Part shown: piece after piece, positions 8,089 through 61,616 of the stretch
Layout: each line of letters starts with the position of its first letter
Numbering within the stretch: position 1 is the first letter of the stretch
DNA from: an uncultured virus (IMG/VR IMGVR_UViG_3300030430_003815)
Taxonomy: Duplodnaviria; Heunggongvirae; Uroviricota; Caudoviricetes
Length of the DNA: 64,000 nt
Direction: 5' to 3' (one strand)
Virus record (IMG/VR): IMGVR_UViG_3300030430_003815
Notes under the pieces: generated by a model
Databases searched by the model: none
The model's input: only the letters and a program-made list of their open reading frames with translations
What the model was told of the DNA's origin: nothing
Made by a program: the position numbers and the translations under genes

Positions 8089-8115
8089 GTAAAAAACTAT
8101 TTGTATGGAAAAATC

Positions 8116-8871
8116 ATGGCCGTAGTAAATTCAAGAGACGATTTAATAGACTATTGTAAGAGAGTTCTCGGAGAACCAGTCATCGAAGTAAATCTTGATG
8201 ATGACCAGATATCTGATAGAGTAGATGAAGCATTACAATATTTTCAAGAGTTCAATAGTGATGCTACTCACAGAACCTACATCAAACACCAAGTAACTCA
8301 AGATGATCTAGACAATAATTATATAACAGTACCAAGTTCTGTTCATATTGTAACTCGACTGTTACCATTATCAAACTCAATTAATAGTTCAACAAACATG
8401 TTCAGTGTTAAGTATCAAATGATGCTTAATGATATAGCTGACTTACAAAATTTTGCTGGTGACTTGGCTTATTACAATCAAATGCAGCAGTATTTAACTT
8501 TAATAGACATGCAATTGAATGGAAAACCTTTAGTTCAGTTTCAAAGGCATCAACATAGACTACACATACTTGGCGATTTAAACGATGGTGATATTAAAAA
8601 AGATGATTTTATAATCTTAGAAGTATATCAGATAGTCGATCCAAATAATTTTACAAGTGTTTATAATGACAAGTTTGTAAAAGAATATACGGCTGCATTG
8701 ATGAAAAGACAATGGGGTCAAAACTTAATAAAATTCGAAGGAATGCAACTTCCTGGAGGTGTGACTATTAATGGACGTCAGATATATGAAGACGCTCTAC
8801 AAGAGATAGAAAGACTAAGAGAATCAGTAAGACTTGAACATGAAATGCCACCAGACTTTTTTATGGGATAA
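8116..8871 (+). CDS. gp13: Neck protein gp13
   Basis: LGEPVIEVN, QWGQNLIKFEGMQLPGGVTINGRQIY, PPDFFMG; ATG 8116 preferred to TTG 8101. Confidence 0.93.
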   Translation: MAVVNSRDDLIDYCKRVLGEPVIEVNLDDDQISDRVDEALQYFQEFNSDATHRTYIKHQVTQDDLDNNYITVPSSVHIVTRLLPLSNSINSSTNMFSVKYQMMLNDIADLQNFAGDLAYYNQMQQYLTLIDMQLNGKPLVQFQRHQHRLHILGDLNDGDIKKDDFIILEVYQIVDPNNFTSVYNDKFVKEYTAALMKRQWGQNLIKFEGMQLPGGVTINGRQIYEDALQEIERLRESVRLEHEMPPDFFMG

Positions 8872-36232: not shown

Positions 36233-36823
36233 ATGGCAAAACGCAGTAAAAACGTTCATTATGTAAACAACCAAGAGTTCTCCTCAGCTGTAGTTGATTA
36301 TGTTGGAACGGTAAAAGAAGCAAAAGAGTCAGGTAAACCAATCCCTGTAGTTACAGATTATGTCGCTACTTGTTTCTTAAGAATTGCTGAGAATCTTTCA
36401 CACAAATCTAACTTTATAAGATATACTTACAGAGAAGAAATGGTGATGGATGCAGTAGAAAATTGTCTTAAGGCAGTAGAAAATTATGATATAAATGCAT
36501 CAACTAGAACAGGAAAACCAAATGCTTTTGCTTATTTCACACAGATAATTTGGTATGCATTCTTAAGAAGAATTACTAAAGAAAAGAAACAACAAGATAT
36601 TAAAGAAAAATATCTTTCTCAATCTGGTATTGAAGCTTTTCTTGCTGCAGAACAAGGGGATATGTCAACTCAAGTCGTTACAAACTTTGTAGATACTCTA
36701 AAAGATAGAATAGATAAAGTTAAGACACATGATGCTGATTTAAAAGCCTTTGCTCAAAAACAAAAAACTAGAAAGAAAAGAGCGGTAAACGTTGATTCAG
36801 ATTTAAGTGAATTTCTGAAGTAA
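36233..36823 (+). CDS. gp55: Late-transcription sigma factor gp55
   Basis: HYVNNQEF, NFIRYTYREEMVMDAVENC, NAFAYFTQIIWYAFLRRITKEKKQ. Confidence 0.95.
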   Translation: MAKRSKNVHYVNNQEFSSAVVDYVGTVKEAKESGKPIPVVTDYVATCFLRIAENLSHKSNFIRYTYREEMVMDAVENCLKAVENYDINASTRTGKPNAFAYFTQIIWYAFLRRITKEKKQQDIKEKYLSQSGIEAFLAAEQGDMSTQVVTNFVDTLKDRIDKVKTHDADLKAFAQKQKTRKKRAVNVDSDLSEFLK

Positions 36824-39677: not shown

Positions 39678-40352
39678 ATGGAACTGAATGAAGACACTCT
39701 TCAGATATTGAAAAACTTTGCTAGTATAAATTCAAACATTGTGTTTGATGAAGGTAGTACAGTTAAGACTATATCTGAAGCAAAAAATATATTATCGGAA
39801 GCTACTATATCAGAAAGCTTTCCACAAAGATTTGGTGTTTACGATTTAAATGAATTCTTAGGAGTACTTGGTTTAGTAGACAAACCTTCATTAAAGTTTG
39901 AAAAAGACTATGCTACTATTAACGATTCAACAGGTCGTTCAAAAGTAAAGTATTTCTTCTCAGATACTGAAATGTTAACAACACCTTCTAAAACAATTAC
40001 AATGCCAGAAGCAGATGTAACCTTTACTCTTGATGCCGATACACTTGGCAAGATAAGAAGAGCTGCTGGCGCTTTAGGTCATAAAGAACTTAAAGTAGAA
40101 CCAAGTGGTGGAGCTGTATCTCTAACTGTTACATCAACTGAAAATTCAACTGCAAATACTTTCTCAATCGATGTAGATGGTAAAGCAAATGTTGATAAAT
40201 ACAATTTTATTTTTAATATAAGTAATCTCAAGATGTTATCTGGAGACTATGACGTAGAAATATCTAAGAAATTAATATCTAAATTCACGAACTCTCAAAG
40301 CAATGTGAGTTATTGGATAGCCCTTGAAAAAACATCAACCTATGGAGTATAA
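39678..40352 (+). CDS. gp45: Sliding clamp gp45
   Basis: LKNFASINSNI, FGVYDLNEFL, YWIALE. Confidence 0.94.
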   Translation: MELNEDTLQILKNFASINSNIVFDEGSTVKTISEAKNILSEATISESFPQRFGVYDLNEFLGVLGLVDKPSLKFEKDYATINDSTGRSKVKYFFSDTEMLTTPSKTITMPEADVTFTLDADTLGKIRRAAGALGHKELKVEPSGGAVSLTVTSTENSTANTFSIDVDGKANVDKYNFIFNISNLKMLSGDYDVEISKKLISKFTNSQSNVSYWIALEKTSTYGV

Positions 40353-40603: not shown

Positions 40604-41542
40604 ATGAATGACACTTTCTTGTGGGTCGAAAAGTATCGACCCCAGACTGTTGCTGAAACTATCCTATCAGATAATCTTAAGTCTACATTTCAAAAGATAG
40701 TTGAATCCAAAGAGATTCCAAATATGTTGTTTACTGGTACAGCTGGTACTGGTAAAACTACTGTTGCTCGAGCTTTATGTAATGAACTCGACTTAGATTA
40801 TATTTTGATAAACGGTTCTGAGGAAGGCAACATTGATACACTTAGAACTAAAATAAAACAATTTGCATCATCTGTATCTTTACAAGGCGGTTATAAAGTA
40901 GTTATACTCGATGAGGCAGATTATCTTAATGCACAATCAACTCAACCCGCACTTCGTGGATTCATAGAAGAATTTGCGAACAATTGTCGTTTTATTCTTA
41001 CATGTAACTTTAAGAATCGCATCATTGAACCTCTACATTCAAGATGTTCAGTGTATGAGTTTAATACATCTAAAAAAGACTTACAAGGATTATGTGCGCA
41101 ATTTCTTAAACATATTGGAAAGATACTTGATAAAGAAGGAATAGGCTATGATCAAATGGTCCTAGTTGATCTTATTATGAAGTATGTACCGGATTGGCGT
41201 AGAGTACTAAATGAATTACAAAGATATTCTATCAGTGGTAGAATCGATGCAGGTATTCTTGTCAATCTAAGCGATAAATCTTTTGATGATTTGTTTACAT
41301 ATTTAAAATCAAAAGACTTTAAGAAAATGAGACAATGGGTTGTTAATAATATCGACACCGATGCTTCTTCTATATTTAGAGGTATCTATGATAGAATGAT
41401 TGATAAAGTTAAACCTCAATCTGTTCCACAACTCGTTTTGATACTTGCTGATTATCAATATAAAAATGCATTTGTTGCTGATATGGAATTGAATGTGGTG
41501 GCGTGCATGACAGAAATAATGGCAAATGTGGAATTTGTATAA
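40604..41542 (+). CDS. gp44: Clamp loader AAA+ subunit gp44
   Basis: LWVEKYRP, GTAGTGKTT, DEAD, SRC. Confidence 0.95.
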   Translation: MNDTFLWVEKYRPQTVAETILSDNLKSTFQKIVESKEIPNMLFTGTAGTGKTTVARALCNELDLDYILINGSEEGNIDTLRTKIKQFASSVSLQGGYKVVILDEADYLNAQSTQPALRGFIEEFANNCRFILTCNFKNRIIEPLHSRCSVYEFNTSKKDLQGLCAQFLKHIGKILDKEGIGYDQMVLVDLIMKYVPDWRRVLNELQRYSISGRIDAGILVNLSDKSFDDLFTYLKSKDFKKMRQWVVNNIDTDASSIFRGIYDRMIDKVKPQSVPQLVLILADYQYKNAFVADMELNVVACMTEIMANVEFV

Positions 41543-43797: not shown

Positions 43798-44546
43798 AAT
43801 TAACATTAATAGGATATGGATTTGTTGGAAAGGCTATGCATCATGTTTTACACAAATGGCATGATGTAAAAATAGTTGATCCACAATATAATGATAACAA
43901 AATAGAAAATGATTCTGATGGATACGTTATTTGTGTTCCAACACCGAGTTCTCATGACGGTTCTTGTGATTTTTCTATAGTAGAAGATGTTGTAAGACAA
44001 TGTCCAAAAGATAAACCTATTTTAGTAAAGAGCACGATTTGTTTAGAAGGATGGAGGAACTTACACCAATATGAAAAAAGTTTAAATTTTAGTCCAGAAT
44101 TCTTGACAGCCGCTAATTCTATATCTGATGCTGAAAGTAAAGAACACATGTTATTAGGTGGCCCAGATATAGATTTTTGGAGTGATACATTTTTAATGTA
44201 TAAAAAAATAATAGCACCTATAGAAGAATTGATACTTACAAAATATATAATAAATTGTTTTTTAGCATCAAAAGTTTCTTTCTTTAATGACATATATAAA
44301 TTATGTAAAGCAACTAATATTAATTATGAAAAGGTTTGTGAACTTGTACAAACCGATGAAAGAATAGGATCAAGTCACATGCAAGTGCCAGGACCTGATG
44401 GTCAAATGGGATTTGGTGGTATGTGTTTTCCAAAAGACACAAAAGCTCTAGTTCATACTGGAATACATTTTAGAAGTCCAATGACATTACTAAATGAAAT
44501 AGTTGCTTTAAATGATATAATAAGAGATGATAATGAACCACTTTGA
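43794..44546 (+). CDS. UDP-glucose/GDP-mannose dehydrogenase family protein (short form)
   Basis: GYGFVG, ICVPTP, KST, PEFL, GFGGMCFPKD. Confidence 0.88.
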   Translation: MKLTLIGYGFVGKAMHHVLHKWHDVKIVDPQYNDNKIENDSDGYVICVPTPSSHDGSCDFSIVEDVVRQCPKDKPILVKSTICLEGWRNLHQYEKSLNFSPEFLTAANSISDAESKEHMLLGGPDIDFWSDTFLMYKKIIAPIEELILTKYIINCFLASKVSFFNDIYKLCKATNINYEKVCELVQTDERIGSSHMQVPGPDGQMGFGGMCFPKDTKALVHTGIHFRSPMTLLNEIVALNDIIRDDNEPL

Positions 44547-44913
44547 TTATTTAAATAGTATAAACGATACTAAAAAAGATATTATGGTTGATGATCTTGC
44601 TGAGAAAGATTATAATGCATTTATGGTTAACAGAGGATTATCATACTACAACGACACTGTAATATATGCAAATGAAATGAATAAACATGCTCATATTGAT
44701 TCACGTATGCAATATGATTTTTTAAAACAAATAATAAGAAAAAGAAAAAGATTCTCTAAATGGAATAAAGCAGATAAATCTGCAGATATTGAAGTTATAA
44801 AAGAATATTATGGTTATTCACGAGATAAAGCTTATCAAGTTCTTTCAATACTCACGAAAGATCAATTAGATATTATTCGTAAGAAGATCAGTAAAGGCGG
44901 TAGAAGTCGGTAA
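44527..44913 (+). CDS. gp62: Clamp loader small subunit gp62
   Basis: DYLNSIN, FMVNRGLSY, ANEMN, RKRFSKW, KEYYGYS. Confidence 0.92.
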   Translation: MIMNHFDYLNSINDTKKDIMVDDLAEKDYNAFMVNRGLSYYNDTVIYANEMNKHAHIDSRMQYDFLKQIIRKRKRFSKWNKADKSADIEVIKEYYGYSRDKAYQVLSILTKDQLDIIRKKISKGGRSR

Positions 44914-48287: not shown

Positions 48288-50819
48288 ATGAAATCTTTTT
48301 ATACTTCCGTAAATCGCTATGGCAATTCTATACTTTATCGTGGTTACAACGAGAATGGAGCTGCCATAGCTCAAAGATATAAATTTTCACCAACACTTTA
48401 TACACCATCAAAGAAACCTACCAAGTTCAAAGGTTTTGACAGCGGATATGTAGCGCCACTAAACTTTCCAACTATGCGAGATGCTAAAGAATGGCTCGAG
48501 CAATATCAGGAAATGGAAGGTGTAAATATATTTGGTACAAAAAATTATATCCATCAGTTTATTACAGAAAAGTTTCCTAATCAAATAGAATTCGAACCAA
48601 ATGCAATTAATGTTGTAAACTTCGATATAGAGGTTGCATCTGATTCTGGATTTCCAGTTCCAGAACAGGCAGCATATCCAATCACAGCAATTACAGTAAA
48701 GTCAAGTCAATCTTCAGTATATCAAGTCTGGGGTTGTGGTGATTACGATTCAGAAAAATGCCAGATAGAATTACATGGTAACTTAATACAATATCATAAA
48801 TGTAAAAATGAAACTGAATTACTTGCAAAGTTCTTAGGTTATTGGATAAAAAATTATCCTGATGTAATTACAGGCTGGAATACACGTTTCTTTGATATAC
48901 CATACATAGTAAATCGTATCAAAAATGTTGGTGGTGAAGTTGCTGCAAGTAGGCTATCACCTTGGAAATTAGTAAGTGAAAGAAACCTCATGATCGGTGG
49001 CCGTATGAATTATGGCTATGATATAACTGGCATTCAACAAGCAGATTATTTAGAACTATTTAAAAAATTTGGATACTCTTACGGTCCTCAAGAATCTTAT
49101 AGACTTGATCATATTGGTTATGTTGTGCTTGGTGAACGTAAACTCTCATTTGAAGAACATGGTAGTTTATTAAATCTTTATAAAAATGATTATCAAAAAT
49201 TTATTGATTATAATATCAAAGATGTTCAATTAGTAGATCGCATCGACCAGAAGATGGGACTTATTAATCTAGTATTTACTATGGCCTATAGGGCTGGTGT
49301 TAATGTTACAGATACATTTGGCACTACAGCAATATGGGAATCAATCATCTATCGTAGACTACAGAAAAATAATATCATAAGTCCAATTGATCAAATCAAG
49401 AAAGTTGTTTATCAAAATAAATCAAATGCAAATGTTATTGAAGGTGGTTATGTTAAGGAACCTCAAGTCGGTGCACATGACTGGGTGGTATCTTTTGATT
49501 TGAACTCTCTGTATCCAAACATTATAGTTCAATCCAACATATCACCCGAAACTTTAGTTAAAGATAAATCGTTTGGTCATTATGAACAGGATGTTAATTA
49601 CTATCTTGATAGTAAAGATAAGACATCTAAGGATTATTCTATATGCGCTAGTGGGGTACCATTTTCTCATGAGAAACAAGGTATCATTCCAGAGTTGATT
49701 GTTGAGTATTATGCAGAGCGTACACAAATTAAAAAGAAAATGCTTAAAGCTAAATCTCAATATGAGAAAGAAAAGTCTCGTCAACTTGAGGCCGAAATAA
49801 ATCAGCTTGAAAATAATCAAATGGCTATTAAGATATTACTAAACTCTCTTTATGGCGCTTTAGCCAATAAGTACTTTAAGTATTTTGATAATGCACTAGC
49901 CGAGAGCGTTACATTGACTGGCCAGCTTTCTATTAAATGGGCAGAGAAGGCTATAAATCAAGAGATGAATAAAGTTCTTAAGACTGGTAATAAAGACTAT
50001 GTTATAGCAATAGATACAGATTCTTTATATATCAACTTTGGTCCATTAGTAAAAAAACTTAATCCAAAAGATCCAGTTGCGGCTATTGATAAACTATGCC
50101 AAACTCATTTTGAAAAGAAACTTGCTGAGGCTTATGATAAACTATTTTATAATCTAAATGGTTACACACCTCGAATGGAAATGGGTAGGGAAGTTATTGC
50201 TGATCGTGGAATCTGGACAGCTAAGAAAAGATACATTCTCAATGTACATAACTCAGAAGGTGTGCAATATGCCGAGCCTAAACTTAAGATTATGGGTATT
50301 GAGGCTATCAAATCGTCTACACCAGAAGTTGTACGTAATAAGTTTAAAGAAGCATTCAAAATTATTGTGACAGGTGATGAATTAAAAACTCGTCAGTTCA
50401 TCAATGAGTTTAAAGAAGAGTTTAAACTACTTTCTCCAGAAATGGTATCATTTCCAAGAAGTGTACAAAATGTTGGTAAGTGGAAAGATAGAATACATAT
50501 ATATTCTAAAGGTACTCCAATTCATGTTCGTGGCGCGCTTTTATATAATCATCACGTATCAGATCTTTTCCTTGATAAAAAATATTCTCAAATTAGTTCA
50601 GGCGATAAGATAAAGTTTTCTTATCTCAAATTACCAAATCCAATTAAAGAAAATGTTATATCGTTTCCCGACTTCTTACCACAAGAATTCAAGCTTCATA
50701 AATATATAGATTACGATACTCAATTTGATAAAACATTTATTGAACCACTCAATCCAATACTTGAAGCGGTTGGCTGGTCAGTAAAAGAACAAAATACATT
50801 AGAGGAGTTTTTTGGATGA
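48288..50819 (+). CDS. gp43: Family B DNA polymerase gp43
   Basis: DIE exonuclease motif, SFDLNSLYP, KILLNSLYG, DTDS; C-terminal TLEEFFG clamp-binding tail. Confidence 0.97.
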   Translation: MKSFYTSVNRYGNSILYRGYNENGAAIAQRYKFSPTLYTPSKKPTKFKGFDSGYVAPLNFPTMRDAKEWLEQYQEMEGVNIFGTKNYIHQFITEKFPNQIEFEPNAINVVNFDIEVASDSGFPVPEQAAYPITAITVKSSQSSVYQVWGCGDYDSEKCQIELHGNLIQYHKCKNETELLAKFLGYWIKNYPDVITGWNTRFFDIPYIVNRIKNVGGEVAASRLSPWKLVSERNLMIGGRMNYGYDITGIQQADYLELFKKFGYSYGPQESYRLDHIGYVVLGERKLSFEEHGSLLNLYKNDYQKFIDYNIKDVQLVDRIDQKMGLINLVFTMAYRAGVNVTDTFGTTAIWESIIYRRLQKNNIISPIDQIKKVVYQNKSNANVIEGGYVKEPQVGAHDWVVSFDLNSLYPNIIVQSNISPETLVKDKSFGHYEQDVNYYLDSKDKTSKDYSICASGVPFSHEKQGIIPELIVEYYAERTQIKKKMLKAKSQYEKEKSRQLEAEINQLENNQMAIKILLNSLYGALANKYFKYFDNALAESVTLTGQLSIKWAEKAINQEMNKVLKTGNKDYVIAIDTDSLYINFGPLVKKLNPKDPVAAIDKLCQTHFEKKLAEAYDKLFYNLNGYTPRMEMGREVIADRGIWTAKKRYILNVHNSEGVQYAEPKLKIMGIEAIKSSTPEVVRNKFKEAFKIIVTGDELKTRQFINEFKEEFKLLSPEMVSFPRSVQNVGKWKDRIHIYSKGTPIHVRGALLYNHHVSDLFLDKKYSQISSGDKIKFSYLKLPNPIKENVISFPDFLPQEFKLHKYIDYDTQFDKTFIEPLNPILEAVGWSVKEQNTLEEFFG

Positions 50820-52922: not shown

Positions 52923-52943
52923 AGAATTAGAATGGAGGTAAAA

Positions 52944-53312
52944 ATGAAAGAATCAGTTAAAGTTTTACAAGAATGCGCTCAAATGCAAACCAAAAAATCA
53001 GCCGACTATCAAAGCGATCAATCAAGCGTATTGCAAGCCATGCATTATCGTCGTGGTGTTGATACAATACATGATATTATAGTTGGTAAACTCATGCGTG
53101 CTACATCTTTACTCGAGTCTGGTAATAATCCAAACTTTGAATCACTTGAAGATAGTTATAAAGATATGATTAATTATGCTTCTTTTGCTGTAGCTTATAT
53201 GCGTGGTAAGATGGAAGGCCAGCGAGAAGATCGTGATATGTTTAATAAACCAATTGATCCAGCTGCTACTATTGATCCTGTTGAAGAACCAATTGAGGCA
53301 CATGACGGATAA
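52944..53312 (+). CDS. DUF1599/Nmad1-like nucleotide-modification-associated protein
   Basis: KKSADY...KLMR...ESLEDSYKDMINY motif; GGAGG SD. Confidence 0.72.
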   Translation: MKESVKVLQECAQMQTKKSADYQSDQSSVLQAMHYRRGVDTIHDIIVGKLMRATSLLESGNNPNFESLEDSYKDMINYASFAVAYMRGKMEGQREDRDMFNKPIDPAATIDPVEEPIEAHDG

Positions 53313-54487: not shown

Positions 54488-54687
54488 ATGATATTATAGA
54501 CCTAGGTGTAGACTTGAGTGAACCAGACTTTACAACTAAAAATGATAGGCCAGGATTTATTAGTAGCAGTGGTTGGCCAGTACGTAGAGAGATAACAAAG
54601 TTAAATCATACTATGAAAGTTATGATCAATCAAATGAATAAATTAAAGAAACAAATAAGTAAACTAGAGAAGAAAATAAATGGATAG
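54469..54687 (+). CDS. Hypothetical protein with coiled-coil C-terminus
   Basis: ORF track. Confidence 0.5.
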   Translation: MRKDNIDDIIDLGVDLSEPDFTTKNDRPGFISSSGWPVRREITKLNHTMKVMINQMNKLKKQISKLEKKING

Positions 54688-55387
54688 TATCGTGGAAAAT
54701 TTAACCTGGGCAAAAGTAAAACATATTCGTCAACATTTTAGAGATGAATTAAAAAAAGAAATATTTACTATTGATAAAACCGGTCAAAAGACTATTGAAA
54801 TGATCGGTGCGTCTTTCATTGCTGATGAGTCTGCAATATTTGGTACTCCTAATCGAGAGTATATTGATGCCGAAATAGATTGGTACAATGGTAGATCTAC
54901 AAATATAAATGAAATATTTGGAATCACTAAAGCACCACCACAAGCCTGGCAATATTCAGCTAATAAGTTTGGTGAGATCAATTCTAATTATGGCCACTTA
55001 ATCTTTAGTGAAAAATTTCATAATCAATATTTGCATGTTGTAGAAGAATTAATAAATAACCCTGATAGTCGTAGAGCCGCAATGATTTATAATCGTCCTT
55101 CAATATGGCTTGAATATAATGAAGACGGTAAGAATGATTTTATCTGTACTAATGCAGTGACATATTATATTCGTAATAGAAGATTAGATGCTGTAGTTCA
55201 AATGAGATCTAACGATGTGGTGTATGGCTACAAAAATGATTACGCCTGGCAACAATATGTTATGAAAAAACTTATCGAAGATATAAATGCTCAAAGAGCA
55301 GATGATGATCAGATCTTCAAAGGTTTCATGCATTGGCAGGTTCAAAACTTACATGTGTATGAAAGGCACTTTGATTTAGTACAATGA
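54680..55387 (+). CDS. gp42: dCMP hydroxymethylase (T4 gp42-type thymidylate synthase homolog)
   Basis: DKTGQKTIEMIGASFIADE, GEINSNYG, NPDSRR, DFICTN, MRSNDVVYGYKNDYAWQ, LHVYERHF closely follow T4 gp42 as recalled, including the cytosine-specifying Asp. Confidence 0.9.
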   Translation: MDSIVENLTWAKVKHIRQHFRDELKKEIFTIDKTGQKTIEMIGASFIADESAIFGTPNREYIDAEIDWYNGRSTNINEIFGITKAPPQAWQYSANKFGEINSNYGHLIFSEKFHNQYLHVVEELINNPDSRRAAMIYNRPSIWLEYNEDGKNDFICTNAVTYYIRNRRLDAVVQMRSNDVVYGYKNDYAWQQYVMKKLIEDINAQRADDDQIFKGFMHWQVQNLHVYERHFDLVQ

Positions 55388-56253: not shown

Positions 56254-56628
56254 ATGAAAAAAATATTGATAGTTGGCCAAAACCCATCAGCTCAAAAGCC
56301 TAGAAAAAATTCTACATTTGATAGATTAGATCAATGGTGTAAAGAAATGAATGTTGATGATTTTGATTTTATTAACTGTATTGATTCAGTTGGTGATTAT
56401 AAAAAGCTAAATATCAATAAGACCAACATAGTAAACTCAACTCGAAACCGTAAAAAAATTATAGCTCTTGGAAATTTTTCTTCAGAGACTCTGACTAAAC
56501 TTGGGATAGATCATTTTAAAATGCCACATCCCTCTCCAAGAAATAGAAAACTTAATGATAAAGAGTTTGAGAAAAAAATGATTAACGAGTGCAAAAGTTA
56601 TTTAAACGAAACCTGTGAGCTACTCTGA
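56254..56628 (+). CDS. Minimal uracil-DNA-glycosylase-superfamily protein
   Basis: ILIVGQNPS (motif A), IIALGN, MPHPSPRN (motif B). Confidence 0.75.
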   Translation: MKKILIVGQNPSAQKPRKNSTFDRLDQWCKEMNVDDFDFINCIDSVGDYKKLNINKTNIVNSTRNRKKIIALGNFSSETLTKLGIDHFKMPHPSPRNRKLNDKEFEKKMINECKSYLNETCELL

Positions 56629-56674: not shown

Positions 56675-57970
56675 ATGTCAAAAATTAAAGTCGGCATTGT
56701 CGGTGTCGGAAACTGTGCTAAGTCTCTCGTCGAGGGAATTCAATACTACAATTCAAATCCAGAAGATAAAGTTGGACTCATGTATCCAGATATCGGTGGT
56801 TACACAACTACTGATATAGAATTCGTTGTTGGTTTTGATGTAGATCGTCGTAAAGTAAATCGTCCATTAACAGAAGCTTTAAGAGCTGCTCCAAACTGCG
56901 CAATGAATCACGTTGAAGAAATATTGGAAGTTGGAAGTAACTCACCAGGTGCTGTAGCTCCAGGTGCTATGGTATATTCTGGTCCTGAACTCGATGGTAT
57001 TGCACCATGGATGCTTGAATATCCTAAAGAAGTTTCATTTAGAACAGGAGCTGAAGCAGCAAAATCTTATGACGATATTGTTGATTTAATTAAAAAAACT
57101 AAGGTTGATGTTTTAATTAACTATCTACCAGTTGGTACTGAAAAAGGATCTAGATTTTATATGGATGCAGCATTGGATGCTGGTGTCCATTTTGTTAATT
57201 GTATTCCAACACTTATATCAACCAAAGAAACTATGGAGATTGAACAGAAGTTTATCAATAAAGGTTTGACTATTGTTGGATCTGATATGAGATCGGCTTG
57301 GGGAGCTTCAAGAATGTCAGAAGTACTTCAAGGTGCTATGATAGATTCAGGATTGATGGTAACACAGCACATACAAATGAATATGGCCGCAGGATCTACT
57401 CAAGGTCAAGAAAATATTAGAACAGGTAGAACCGCAAATACTGATTTTCTTAATATGGCTGAAAAATCTCGATTGCATAATAAACATGTATCGAAAGAAA
57501 ATGTTTTGAAAGGTCAGAACGTAGTACGAAATGAACCTACAGCTGGTGCAACACTTTACGCTGGCCCATCACTTACAGTATTTCAAAAGCCAGGTGGACA
57601 ATATGTAGGTAGTGATAATAAAATAGCTAACTTTGATATTATTGCTTATGGTTTTGGTGGAGCTAGATATGAAATGTCCGCTAGATTATCAGTACAGGAT
57701 TCTCCAAATTCTGGTGGTGTTGTGGTATCTGCAATCAGGTTCTGTAAAGTCGCATCTGAAATGAGTATTGTTGGTTATCTTAGAGGACCATCAGCATGGA
57801 CTCAAAAAACTCCTCCACTTCAGTTATCTACATCTGATTCAAAATTTGAATGTGATGCTTTGGCAAGACGTACTCTTACAAAATTAACTGAAGCTCAATT
57901 AAAAGTAAATAAACCAAAAGCAAAAAGTTTACCATATACATTTCAAGCTGGAGAAACAGATTATGAGTAG
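56675..57970 (+). CDS. ino1: Myo-inositol-1(3)-phosphate synthase
   Basis: VGVGNCAKSLVEG, INYLPVG, FVNCIP, NTDFLNM, DSPNSGG. Confidence 0.9.
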   Translation: MSKIKVGIVGVGNCAKSLVEGIQYYNSNPEDKVGLMYPDIGGYTTTDIEFVVGFDVDRRKVNRPLTEALRAAPNCAMNHVEEILEVGSNSPGAVAPGAMVYSGPELDGIAPWMLEYPKEVSFRTGAEAAKSYDDIVDLIKKTKVDVLINYLPVGTEKGSRFYMDAALDAGVHFVNCIPTLISTKETMEIEQKFINKGLTIVGSDMRSAWGASRMSEVLQGAMIDSGLMVTQHIQMNMAAGSTQGQENIRTGRTANTDFLNMAEKSRLHNKHVSKENVLKGQNVVRNEPTAGATLYAGPSLTVFQKPGGQYVGSDNKIANFDIIAYGFGGARYEMSARLSVQDSPNSGGVVVSAIRFCKVASEMSIVGYLRGPSAWTQKTPPLQLSTSDSKFECDALARRTLTKLTEAQLKVNKPKAKSLPYTFQAGETDYE

Positions 57971-58367
57971 AGAACCTTTTGAGCCTTGGGAAAACATTCC
58001 TCAAAAGACCATAAATTCATATGATATCGATGGTGTTATATACATGGGCGACTATGATGGATTAAGACCAGGACCAGATGATATTATAATTACTGGAAGG
58101 TCTATTAATACTGAAAAAGAAACTCAAAAAATGCTTCTTGAAAAAGGTATAACTAATCCTTTATACATGAACTTTAAAGATGAAGACTTTAATGATAGAG
58201 AACAATCTGGATTTCACAAAGGTTGGACTCTATTTCATCTTGAAAAGATGGGGTATCATATTGGAATTCATTACGATGATGACAAAGTCCAAATCAAAAA
58301 AATAAATGAAATGATGCCAGATATTAAATGTGTTCATATTAAGCACAAACTTGTACCAAAGGAGTAA
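57963..58367 (+). CDS. Capless HAD phosphatase
   Basis: YDIDGV, ITGRS, K, HYDDD motifs. Confidence 0.8.
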   Translation: MSREPFEPWENIPQKTINSYDIDGVIYMGDYDGLRPGPDDIIITGRSINTEKETQKMLLEKGITNPLYMNFKDEDFNDREQSGFHKGWTLFHLEKMGYHIGIHYDDDKVQIKKINEMMPDIKCVHIKHKLVPKE

Positions 58368-58369
58368 AC

Positions 58370-59440
58370 ATGTACAACTATGATTGGTGGTCTTATGATA
58401 AAGACATAATGAAAGATTTTAATCATTTCTTAAAAAAGATTAATACTCGAGCATGCATCAATTATGGTTTTATTGATGAGGAATATGAAAACTTGAATAG
58501 GCATGGCGAGTTAGATCATGGCCTAGGACGCAACGTAGAATATTTCCACCCTACAATTACTTTAGATGATAGAATGAGATATATTGGTACAGTCATTGCG
58601 CAACACGATATGTCAGATTTTAGTATCTTAGGTAATGGTATCATATCTCACTTTTATGGAGCACGAGGTTGTCATATGGCAGTTACAGGATCTAATGATC
58701 CAAACGACTGTTTTGTTGATTTTGATAGACTGGCTGAAAATGATAAAGATTATTTGCAACATCTTAGAAATAATATAGATAATGCTAAGAGATTAAAAAA
58801 ACCAATATGGGGTACAACAGAACTTCATACATCAATACAAGCAGCGTCAAGAAATTATTGTAGAGAAAAATATGATGATGCAAATAGATTATTTCATCCA
58901 GTTGATGTAGTTGATTGGGTAGCATCATTTAGAGATAATGGAACATATGAAGAACTTTTTGCTGCAGATCATATTGGTCAAGCTTATAAGATATTAAGAA
59001 AGTTGCCAGGTATTGGAGAATATTATGGATTTCACGGCGCGGCATCAACTAGTGTTTTGCCTCAAATGAAATATTATCATGATGATAAATTTGTAGCACC
59101 AGGGCCAGGCGCCGTATATACAATAGGACTCATGTGGCCAAAAGCTCCAAAAAAATATTATGCAGAAGCTATTTACTTCTTGAGAGAAAATAGTGATGAA
59201 ATCGGTCTTACAGAAGATGTTAGTTTCCATCCAGGCGCATATAATATTGACATGCCAGGTGGAAAAAAACTTTTTAGAGAAGATCAAAAAACTCTTAAAT
59301 ATTATGGTACTGAAGTTTTATCTTGTCAGTTCGGTATATACTTGCAGATTAGAGAAGATGCTAACATGTGCGCAAAACGTCAGGTATCAAGAGCTACAGT
59401 ACTTGAAGATCAAAATACATTAGAAAGTTTTATGCAATGA
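58370..59440 (+). CDS. aGPT-Pplase1-like (HhH-glycosylase fold) DNA base hypermodification enzyme
   Basis: LRKLPGIGEYY, FVAPGPGA, EVLSCQFGIY motifs; C-terminal TLESF tail. Confidence 0.7.
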   Translation: MYNYDWWSYDKDIMKDFNHFLKKINTRACINYGFIDEEYENLNRHGELDHGLGRNVEYFHPTITLDDRMRYIGTVIAQHDMSDFSILGNGIISHFYGARGCHMAVTGSNDPNDCFVDFDRLAENDKDYLQHLRNNIDNAKRLKKPIWGTTELHTSIQAASRNYCREKYDDANRLFHPVDVVDWVASFRDNGTYEELFAADHIGQAYKILRKLPGIGEYYGFHGAASTSVLPQMKYYHDDKFVAPGPGAVYTIGLMWPKAPKKYYAEAIYFLRENSDEIGLTEDVSFHPGAYNIDMPGGKKLFREDQKTLKYYGTEVLSCQFGIYLQIREDANMCAKRQVSRATVLEDQNTLESFMQ

Positions 59441-60423
59441 AAGCAATACTAAACTGTCCATTTATTCCAGTGGCAAAAAGAATAGCTTCTCATAGAGGAG
59501 CTCAAGGTGTCATGTATGGCGATATGATAAAACAAAAATATGGACATTGTGATGTCAACTTTGGTGGAGAGATTGTAGATCACAATCAGTATGATACGAT
59601 GTGGGTATATCATGGAAATGATTTTAGTGGTGGATTAAATATGTTTGGCGGTGTTTATGGATTTCCTTATGTAGAAAATACAGTAAACTTTTCTAAGTTT
59701 AAAGGAAAGATAAAATCAATAGCCATTGACTTCCCGCCATATCATGAATGGATAAAAGATAAATTAGATAAGGCTAAAAAAGATGTACAGCCTGAATGGG
59801 CCAATGTAGATTTAAATAATCTTGAAAGAATGTATAATGAAGCTGAAACCGTTGATTATCCAAATATGACTGATAAACTAGTCATAGGTGATTCACATTC
59901 AATATGCATGTATAGACCAGGTTGGACCGTCAATAGTATACCATTTAAAACTTTAAATGGAGCATTAAAAGAAGGTATCAAAACATTCATACCAAAAGGA
60001 AGTTTCAATCAAATAGAATTATATTTTGGCAATATTGATATAAGACATCATGTATGTAGGCTAAATGCCGATATAGAAGAATTAGCTGATAGGTATATCG
60101 AACAAGCAAAAGAATTAAATGCTAAAATATATGAACTACTGCCGATAGAAAACGAATCACGTAAGTTACCACAATCTGGATATTACAAAGGCGAACCTTT
60201 CTGGGGAACATGGCAAGAAAGAACAGATGCAAGAAATAAGTTTAATGATTATATTGAAAGCAAATATGGAATCATACGATGGACAGATAAATTATTAAAT
60301 AAAGCCGGTGAACTTGATTTTGCATGTATGGAAAAACCAAAGTCAATACATTTAAGTAGAGAATTCTATCCTCATTGGAATGGTGAAGAAGAAGTAAATA
60401 CATTAGAGGAGTTTTTCGGATGA
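59437..60423 (+). CDS. Putative DNA-modifying enzyme: BGT-like N-terminal domain fused to an SGNH-like domain
   Basis: QYDTMWVY...NMFGG...KFKGKIKSIAIDFP resembles the T4 BGT N-domain; VIGDSH, FGNIDIR, SIHLS resemble SGNH blocks; ends TLEEFFG. Confidence 0.55.
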   Translation: MKAILNCPFIPVAKRIASHRGAQGVMYGDMIKQKYGHCDVNFGGEIVDHNQYDTMWVYHGNDFSGGLNMFGGVYGFPYVENTVNFSKFKGKIKSIAIDFPPYHEWIKDKLDKAKKDVQPEWANVDLNNLERMYNEAETVDYPNMTDKLVIGDSHSICMYRPGWTVNSIPFKTLNGALKEGIKTFIPKGSFNQIELYFGNIDIRHHVCRLNADIEELADRYIEQAKELNAKIYELLPIENESRKLPQSGYYKGEPFWGTWQERTDARNKFNDYIESKYGIIRWTDKLLNKAGELDFACMEKPKSIHLSREFYPHWNGEEEVNTLEEFFG

Positions 60424-61616
60424 GCTTTGCAAGTATAGTACCACTTATAGGTGGTGAAACAATAGCAATGCAGAATGTATCAGGTAAAAAACCAGAATAT
60501 ATATTGAGCTATTCAGCGTTTGAAGCAAACGATAATCAATTAGTTGAGTACTATGATAACAAAGTCCCATACTATCATTTAGATGGTAACATGCCAAATA
60601 GTTTACCAACTGTAGAATCAGTTAATACTGTGTGTCCATGCGCAGGATTAAGCAGTCTTTCTCCAGTTGCCGGTACAAATAACAGTAATAATGATTGGAT
60701 GATTTCAACAGCTAAACATGTTTTAGAACATATTAATCCTAAAGTATTTTGGGGAGAAAACGCTCCAAGACTTGCAAGTAAAATGGGAGAACCTATTGTT
60801 AAGAATCTTAGAAAAATTGGTAGAGACAATGGTTATACATTTTCTATTTACAAGACTAAATCTATATTACATGGGCTAAGTCAAGTCAGAGACAGAACAT
60901 TTTATTTCTTTTGGAAAGGAAACAAAACTCCACAACTACCTTACTTTCGCAGAGATTATGAACGTATTGAAGATACTATTAGAAATACTAAACTTGAAAA
61001 AGATGATCCTATGAATACTCCTGCTAATAGTAAGGTTCCTACAGATAATCCTTTTTATAAGTATGTACTAGAAGAGATTGAAGGAGGAATAACACATTCA
61101 GAGTTTCAAGAAAAAATAGAACGTAGTACTAATCCTTTAGAAGAAATAGAAAGAGCTGGTATAAAATATCGTACTGTGGGTGAGTGGATGACTAAAAATG
61201 GTCATGATAGAGAAGCAGAAAAGTGTAAAAGAATGCACGATAAATTAGCATCAGGCGGTAATATAATGCGTAAAACTACTGAAATACCAAAAGATTATAT
61301 TGGAGCTTTTGTTGGTCATATGCCAACTTCATTAACACATCCTGATGAAGATAGGTATCTTACAGTAAGAGAATGTTTATCAATAATGAAACTACCAAAT
61401 GATTTTATGTTGCAGGGAGGATTAAAAAATCTTAATCACATTTGTCAAAATGTTCCAGTAACTACAGCAGAAGATATGGCTACAAGTGTTCATGCTTTTG
61501 TTGAAGGAAGACTTGATAACCAATTGATAGATACTGAATTTTTAGTGCAAGACAATAAAAGTAAATCATTAGATTATGAAAGAGATGTTTTGAAATTAGA
61601 TCAATTTATGGTATAA
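60420..61616 (+). CDS. C5-cytosine methyltransferase-fold protein with degenerate SAM-binding motifs
   Basis: CPCAG, GENAP, QVRDR, RYLTVREC; motif I reads IVPLIGG and motif X reads QNVP. Confidence 0.75.
   Translation: MSFASIVPLIGGETIAMQNVSGKKPEYILSYSAFEANDNQLVEYYDNKVPYYHLDGNMPNSLPTVESVNTVCPCAGLSSLSPVAGTNNSNNDWMISTAKHVLEHINPKVFWGENAPRLASKMGEPIVKNLRKIGRDNGYTFSIYKTKSILHGLSQVRDRTFYFFWKGNKTPQLPYFRRDYERIEDTIRNTKLEKDDPMNTPANSKVPTDNPFYKYVLEEIEGGITHSEFQEKIERSTNPLEEIERAGIKYRTVGEWMTKNGHDREAEKCKRMHDKLASGGNIMRKTTEIPKDYIGAFVGHMPTSLTHPDEDRYLTVRECLSIMKLPNDFMLQGGLKNLNHICQNVPVTTAEDMATSVHAFVEGRLDNQLIDTEFLVQDNKSKSLDYERDVLKLDQFMV

Follow-up and report, generated by a model that had tools for sequence, protein, structure and literature searches.

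In T4-type phages the DNA polymerase gp43, the late sigma factor gp55 and gp33 bind the sliding clamp gp45 through their C-terminal tails. In T4 itself gp43 ends in SLDFLFG and gp55 in SLDFLYEAND. According to the accessible text of PMC2988020, the C-terminal epitopes of these two T4 proteins bind gp45 and are interchangeable, and the one of gp55 sits behind a divergent, probably unstructured linker. The same text reports that the RB69 clamp was co-crystallised with the C-terminal 11-mer of the polymerase, that T4 late transcription uses the clamp away from the polymerase, and that homologues of gp55, gp33 and the polymerase may differ between T4 relatives in where they attach to their clamps. 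Ever since an interaction of the T4 alpha-glucosyltransferase (alpha-GT) with gp45 was reported (Sommer et al. 2004, as cited in the accessible part of PMC6024577), it has been a question, now disputed (see below), whether the replisome is the place from which phage DNA-modifying enzymes act. Here we describe three consecutive open reading frames (ORFs) coding for enzymes A (ORF 58370), B (ORF 59437) and C (ORF 60420), whose stop and start codons overlap (ATGA). They occupy positions 58370-61616 of 64,000 nucleotides (nt) of DNA from an uncultured virus (IMG/VR record IMGVR_UViG_3300030430_003815). This whole stretch, which we name the window, is of the T4-like myovirus type, of marine origin, and has a G+C content of 34.6%. 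The three enzymes end with peptides of the type found at the end of the resident gp43. Comparison of the sequences makes it likely that these tails are gp45-binding peptides which tether DNA-acting enzymes to DNA-loaded clamps.

C-terminal tails of the window and of related viruses

The C-terminus of gp43 in the window reads EQNTLEEFFG, those of enzymes A, B and C read DQNTLESFMQ, EVNTLEEFFG and VLKLDQFMV, respectively, and gp55 ends in DLSEFLK. These are the five peptides to which the preliminary description of this DNA had drawn attention, and they were found as it gave them (coordinates in Table 1). In all five proteins the motif stops 1 to 2 residues short of the stop codon. The tails are not distributed at random. 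Among the 75 non-overlapping window ORFs of at least 45 amino acids (aa), the pattern L..F[FLMIV] is found within the last 8 residues of gp43, gp55, A, B and C only (5/75), when 0.27 cases are expected from its presence in 71 of 19,394 interior segments of 8 residues. The stricter pattern [ST]L[ED].F[FLM] has three occurrences across the same 75 ORFs, all of them C-terminal, and none in the 19,394 interior segments. Chance is excluded as the origin of the tails at the protein level.

The preliminary description had proposed tail conservation across homologues as a check of its reading. The inspection covered 29 related viral loci fetched with enzyme B as query, which hold 462 ORFs. The strict motif is carried by 43 of these ORFs, 42 of which are homologues of gp43, A, B or C, the sole exception being an antisense ORF of 56 aa. 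It is present in 12/12 members of the C family, in 13/24 of the B family and in 9/17 of the A family, a figure that rises to 17/17 with a loose motif in which Ile or Trp is allowed. All eight gp43 homologues with a complete C-terminus have it in the form L..F[FL]. The motif is absent from the inositol-phosphate-synthase-like (0/16), HAD (0/15), gp42-like (0/11), dCMP deaminase (0/9), epimerase (0/2) and UvsX (0/20) proteins of the same loci. Tails of the A family (TLE.F, SIEEFLI, PTLEAFV, GTLEQWI) are kept down to 24% identity of the protein body. In the C family the tail is kept in 116/120 of the nearest cluster representatives (at least 65% identity), and residues L393 and F396 of enzyme C are invariant in 8 aligned homologues. 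The 30 gp55 homologues encoded beside related gp45 genes all end in DSDL..F[LMF]x or SNLE[ED]F[FI]…, and some finish with SNLEEFF, which is nearly identical to the end SNLEEFFT of gp43 in related phages. In this phage group the gp43 and gp55 tails thus represent a single class of motif, to which those of A, B and C belong.

The tails are C-terminal and follow linkers whose length varies by 6-13 residues when the B and A families are aligned. In the B family the domain end …SREFYPHWN is followed by 6-12 residues and then by [NS][ST]LE.F[FL], and in the A family the linker length varies by up to 13 residues. The corresponding segments of the structural models have a predicted local distance difference test (pLDDT) value below 50 (residues 289-328 of B and 330-356 of A), with a short helix at the very end (residues 324-327 and 351-355, respectively).

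Some other C-termini have a related appearance. A head-tail adaptor-like protein (window 8101-8871) ends in …PPDFFMG, which is hydrophobic, lacks the motif Leu and is probably a chance likeness. In one related locus an ORF of 240 aa between A and B (L017:3930-4652) has the tail-like end …VDIFMKRK, and in another an ORF of 146 aa downstream of the cluster (L015:13155-13595) ends in …ADNMLSFLKGE. ORFs of about 450-466 aa located two genes downstream of UvsX finish with a conserved F.[DG]FK[TLVI]x (TFADFKT, SFADFKL, NFNGFKIE; Table 1), a further conserved C-terminal peptide; the protein that carries it probably acts in replication.

Tail type, polymerase tail and the sliding clamp

At the level of sequence, the tail type follows the tail type of the resident polymerase in three other phage lineages. 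In Aeromonas phage phiAS4, whose B homologue (ORF0027) stands alone, this protein ends in …SNTLELFDI, as compared with …NNLFDMFDI for gp43. In Aeromonas phage 31, where B and A homologues are fused (see next section), the fusion protein ends in …SLDGLFAI (T4-type SLD.LF), gp55 in …NLDNFYEDEPET and gp43 in …NNLFDMFDI. Of 123 full-length representatives of the distant C family (30-57% identity), 22 have a gp45-type tail and 28 have [LIVM]F at the extreme C-terminus, often as KSKxLF, when about one is expected. With one of the latter proteins as query, ends of the x-L-F type were found in unrelated large low-GC phage contigs of 84-238 kb (records G002-G006; loci L118, L120, L121 and L122, L159 and L160) on two C5-methyltransferases, an ECF-type sigma factor, AGT-like, GT25-like and GT1-like glycosyltransferases and a weak TAGT-like protein. 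The family-B polymerase of this group is split, and its C-terminal half ends in …RTQLF in two records. A polymerase, a sigma factor and DNA-modifying enzymes are again the carriers, with another peptide, a pattern that a shared clamp partner predicts. A search for the DnaN-type clamp (PF00712) gave no match in five records of the x-L-F lineage, which are incomplete.

Binding of the tails to gp45, a coupling to replication and the chemistry of modification are inferences. The three enzymes close with a short linear motif of 6 to 8 residues, [ST/K]-L-[ED]-x-F-[FM], placed after a flexible linker and of the same kind as the gp45-binding C-terminal peptides of the resident gp43 and gp55. Each enzyme would dock through it on the hydrophobic ligand site of trimeric gp45 loaded on phage DNA. 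Such tethering would raise the local enzyme concentration on newly replicated DNA, and the hydroxymethylated pyrimidines (provided via the gp42 homologue) and cytosines could then be modified soon after synthesis, ahead of host nucleases.

Structure prediction of the peptides with gp45, another check named in the preliminary description, was run for the tail of enzyme C, chosen as the one least like the gp43 tail. Residues 355-398 of C (44 residues; alignment of 8 rows) were combined with the gp45 trimer (alignment of 16 rows). The three runs scored 0.30, 0.53 and 0.50 (median 0.50; best control 0.02), at least 45% of the contacts were in agreement and the partner pLDDT was 33-43, a result that the tool rates as weak support. 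In the calibration of the tool 116 of 157 solved complexes and 2 of 215 mismatched pairs attained its mark, and scores of at most 0.60 comprised just 18 of those solved complexes plus both mismatches. The score may reflect likeness, because a similar complex, the RB69 clamp with the polymerase peptide, has already been solved.

Several observations weigh against docking of the enzymes on gp45. The B homologues of 10 loci (L024-L033; 46-49% identity, e.g. L026:10001-10999) stop at the domain end (…REFYPHWNQ) and have no tail. The gp43 tail is nevertheless present in L026, L027, L029 and L033, the four of these loci whose available stretch reaches the gp43 C-terminus. The B homologue of L035 likewise lacks the motif, and the tail is thus dispensable for B. 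Neither tail type is found in 73/123 distant members of the C family. In T4, inspection of the C-termini of alpha-GT, beta-glucosyltransferase (beta-GT) and Dam revealed no such tail, and a 2025 preprint could not reproduce the interaction of alpha-GT with gp45 (10.64898/2025.12.06.692756); that work made use of C-terminally His-tagged enzymes. The proposal of the preliminary description that the enzymes ride gp45 is partly supported: its predictions that sequence comparison can address all held (conservation, match to the gp43 and gp55 tails, variable linkers and tracking of the polymerase), but the tail is not obligatory in B. In the clade with tail-less B homologues C is absent, and two other tail-free ORFs (387 and 315 aa) are found upstream in place of A.

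It is rather unlikely that the tails bind gp45 to act as regulators, competing with gp43, gp55 and gp33 for clamp sites and thereby timing replication or late transcription, or that they use clamps left behind the fork and uncoupled from it, in the manner of T4 late transcription. The three ligand sites of gp45 are to be shared by at least five motif-carrying window proteins, the clamp is known to be used away from the polymerase in late transcription (PMC2988020, accessible text), and B homologues without tail exist, all of which such a role would accommodate. Against it, the tail is limited to enzymes with DNA-acting domains, the precursor enzymes being all without it. Tethering to the substrate fits better than regulation because DNA-acting enzymes, and never precursor enzymes, carry the tail.

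A shared partner other than gp45 is an unlikely explanation. It could be a replisome or late-transcription component, or the enzymes might bind one another in a complex; alternatively the tails might serve as a stability or degradation signal. The weak prediction of the gp45 complex and the possible variation of clamp attachment sites among T4 relatives (see above) would fit this view, but gp43 and gp55, the two carriers besides the modifying enzymes, are the very proteins whose T4 counterparts bind gp45 by C-terminal epitopes, and the unrelated x-L-F lineage again pairs a polymerase and a sigma factor with DNA-modifying enzymes as carriers.

The DNA of the gp43 and B tails is also very similar. 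Positions 50793-50819 and 60397-60423 (27 nt each) differ by a single base, as the preliminary description had noted (26/27 identical), and the pattern has these two matches in the window as compared to 0.00 expected from 100 shuffles. The GAGGAG coding for Glu-Glu in both copies doubles as a ribosome-binding site for the next gene, whose overlapping ATG follows at a distance of about 9 nt. Much of the identity is due to this use of GAGG(AG) for both peptide and ribosome-binding site, which leaves the peptide itself unexplained. A mere by-product at the DNA level with no protein function, left by a translational-coupling cassette (GAGGAG together with the ATGA overlap) or by gene conversion that recently affected a patch of gp43 and ORF 59437, is highly improbable: the first tail Glu codon is GAG followed by G before the C start in 9/9 of the listed Glu-bearing B homologues (10 rows), but the A and C tails lack such a cassette, the ribosome-binding site of the gene after C lies past the C stop codon, five gp43 homologues listed from the related loci keep the peptide with other codons where the stop codon (TAA or TAG) is followed by an intergenic spacer, and the motif is conserved as a peptide in families down to 24% identity. 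Across homologues the tail is encoded by differing Leu, Glu and Phe codons, whether or not it overlaps a downstream gene. Translational coupling as the sole cause of the tails was rejected, the peptide being kept through synonymous codon changes without an overlapping gene.

If the tails bind gp45 and tether A, B and C to DNA-loaded clamps, this would explain how phages can shield DNA made only seconds before from restriction. It would also provide a rule to recognize DNA-acting enzymes among sugar-metabolism-like phage genes (a tail indicating a DNA substrate), and would imply that C-terminal tags can abolish the clamp interaction in assays. The 8-residue peptide common to the polymerase and to abundant marine phage enzyme families is a directly testable handle. 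More tentatively, phage DNA hypermodification might in general be organised by clamp docking as a portable principle. A C-terminal peptide would be independently gained and lost by unrelated folds (C5-methyltransferase, aGPT-Pplase-like, SGNH-like and glycosyltransferases of several families) and would track the peptide used by the resident polymerase and late sigma factor of each lineage. The three-site clamp could then serve as a tool-belt for consecutive pathway steps on nascent DNA.

Enzymes A, B and C and their genomic setting

Enzyme A carries the helical domain of the 5-hmdU DNA kinase/aGPT-Pplase enzymes according to its match to PF18723 (residues 181-277; E 4.5e-9; 36.5 bits for a cut-off of 25), Pfam being the sole source of this assignment. 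HMUDK_hel is present in 92-100% of the members of the matching Atlas clusters. No kinase (P-loop) domain and no other Pfam or NCBIfam match was found in A; its model (mean pLDDT 62.7) had no Foldseek match at E 0.001 and its family profile no match among PDB sequences at E 1.

Enzyme B had no Pfam match at E 0.01. Its model (pLDDT 74) displays a Rossmann-like domain at the N-terminus and a putative domain of SGNH/GDSL type, and an Atlas lead to GDSL scored 0.90. The Foldseek match to 2hsj_B (E 4.4e-6) has TM-scores of just 0.35 and 0.50, and the likeness to the T4 beta-GT structure 1qkj (E 1.9e-4) is faint, with a low TM-score. The motifs GDSH (residues 151-154) and GNIDIRHH (198-205, including D201-x-x-H204) are invariant in the B family, and might correspond to the block I GDS serine and the block V DxxH histidine of SGNH enzymes. 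B and A homologues are fused in Aeromonas phages 31 and UP87, forming one protein of about 800 aa (Table 1), and B is therefore functionally tied to A. The gene directly upstream of the fusion (L001:4408-5931) codes for a protein of 508 aa that is predicted to span the membrane several times.

Enzyme C matches PF00145 (E 9.7e-17; 61.8 bits for a cut-off of 22) and has the catalytic motifs PC at residue 73 and ENA at residue 113. Its score with NCBIfam TIGR00675 (34 bits) falls below the cut-off of 100.65, which makes C a divergent member of the C5-methyltransferases. No PDB chain was matched by phmmer at E 1e-3.

The gp42 homologue of the window is 52% identical to T4 gp42, a dCMP hydroxymethylase, and keeps the MRSND segment. 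For this reason the modified base is probably hydroxymethylcytosine (hmC), and A and B probably act on a hydroxymethyl base supplied by the gp42-type enzyme. It is puzzling to find a C5-methyltransferase homologue in a phage where hmC possibly takes the place of C, because position C5 would then be occupied already. The inositol-phosphate-synthase-like and HAD-type genes lie directly 5′ of A and are conserved together with A, B and C (including L011-L022), which suggests that they synthesize a presumed donor derived from a cyclitol- or sugar-phosphate. With these two genes, the second coding for the phosphatase, hmC may in this pathway receive a group derived from a cyclitol or a sugar. The preliminary description had placed the substrate of the enzymes in DNA rather than in a cell-surface glycan. 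The domain content of A (HMUDK_hel) and C (methyltransferase) supports this view, as do the B-A fusion of Aeromonas phages and the lack of a tail on the adjoining sugar/cyclitol precursor enzymes.

All genes examined in the window are encoded by the same strand. Besides those of Table 1, PHROG and Pfam scans identified genes for gp47/gp46, gp44, gp62, RegA, Hsp20, a plastocyanin-like protein, a MazG-like pyrophosphatase, a primase-like protein, dCMP deaminase and UvsX. The clamp loader is encoded at 40604-41542 and 44527-44913. The UDG-superfamily and DUF1599 proteins are both without tail. The nearest cultured match of gp43 is the polymerase of Phage C48C1 (54% identity), followed by those of cyanophages and Methylophilales phages (46-49%), and a blastn search with positions 58370-61616 against cultured phages gave no match. 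The nearest record, G001, is a 13.7-kb fragment that has no B homologue.

Table 1. Position of the tails, of the genes discussed in the text and of related features in other loci (L, related viral locus; other positions refer to the window).
Feature	Position	Strand	Assignment
gp55, late sigma factor, 196 aa	36233-36823	+	phrog_234, E 1.4e-52
gp55 C-terminal tail SDLSEFLK	36797-36820	+	translation
gp45, sliding clamp, proposed docking partner	39678-40352	+	phrog_223, E 1.4e-76; PF09116, E 9.6e-12
gp43, family-B DNA polymerase, 843 aa	48288-50819	+	phrog_262, 1017 bits
gp43 tail NTLEEFFG, reference tail	50793-50816	+	translation
gp42-type deoxypyrimidylate hydroxymethylase, thymidylate-synthase fold	54680-55387	+	PF00303, E 1.5e-11
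Small UDG-superfamily protein and DUF1599 'nucleotide modification associated domain 1' protein	56254-56628 and 52932-53312		PF03167, E 2.5e-7 (UDG)
Inositol-phosphate-synthase-like protein	56675-57970	+	TIGR03450, E 5.1e-59, below cut-off; PF01658, E 2e-8
Small HAD/PNK-phosphatase-like protein	57963-58367	+	phrog_415, E 4e-5
Enzyme A (ORF 58370), 356 aa	58370-59440	+	PF18723 HMUDK_hel
Enzyme A tail NTLESFMQ	59414-59437	+	
Enzyme B (ORF 59437), 328 aa, viral family	59437-60423	+	phrog_13881, phrog_17781
Enzyme B tail NTLEEFFG, identical to gp43 tail	60397-60420	+	
Enzyme C (ORF 60420), 398 aa, C5 cytosine DNA methyltransferase homologue	60420-61616	+	PF00145
Enzyme C tail LKLDQFMV	61590-61613	+	
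B-A fusion (order B-A, Lys/Pro-rich linker), Aeromonas phage 31 ORF233c	L001:6001-8388		
B-A fusion (order B-A, Lys/Pro-rich linker)	L002:4847-7264		
ORFs with F.[DG]FK[TLVI]x end	L012:8454-9845, L018:9129-10529, L021:6331-7716, L026:12382-13746		

Comparison with known clamp-binding peptides and modification systems

The PIP-box has the consensus Qxx[ILM]xx[FY][FY], and a peptide that binds PCNA brings the eukaryotic DNA methyltransferase DNMT1 to replicated DNA. The gp43 tail of the window (Q-N-T-L-E-E-F-F) fits this consensus and gp45 is PCNA-like; however, relatives do not conserve the Gln of the window type, the motif is confined to the C-terminus, and the organisms and enzymes are unrelated.

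Enzymes of the 5-HMUDK and aGPT-Pplase group work post-replicatively on hydroxymethylpyrimidines in DNA (PMC8989533, PMC5889632, accessible parts). Enzyme A has the helical domain of this group, but no kinase domain was detected in it by the searches described above, and the base may be hmC rather than hydroxymethyluracil. CmoX of Synechococcus phage S-B43 is, in the accessible text of PMC12783734, a DNA cytosine C5-carboxymethyltransferase and C5-methyltransferase homologue that performs the first hypermodification step and is defined by an SPPC motif and an Arg binding the carboxyl group. Enzyme C is likewise a phage C5-methyltransferase homologue, but it reads VCPCAG (CPC) where CmoX has SPPC, and in this motif departs from the CmoX type. 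No CmoA gene was seen among the annotated window neighbours.

Clamp tails of gp43, gp55 and gp33 and a modification enzyme acting on gp45 were known before; the window adds a polymerase-type tail conserved on several unrelated DNA-modifying enzymes. Our literature search, with subscription papers and supplements outside its reach, found no account of clamp-binding tails on phage DNA-modifying enzymes. Targeted term searches in PMC8989533, 10.1101/2023.12.21.572611 and PMC13229309 came across no description of such tails, and the terms clamp, replisome and processivity are absent from PMC8989533.

The proposal made for T4 alpha-GT (Sommer et al. 2004) shares with ours the idea of a DNA-modifying enzyme that acts from the clamp right after replication. 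It differs in that T4 enzymes have no shared tail, and in that the evidence from the window is a conserved motif on three enzymes, not a pull-down. There is also a close likeness to the T4 and RB69 epitopes, where an acidic-hydrophobic peptide is also found at the extreme C-terminus, behind a divergent linker, on the polymerase and on the late sigma factor. The peptide reads S-L-D-F-L-F/Y in T4 and T-L-E-E-F-F in the window, and, unlike in T4, its carriers in the window include three DNA-modifying enzymes.

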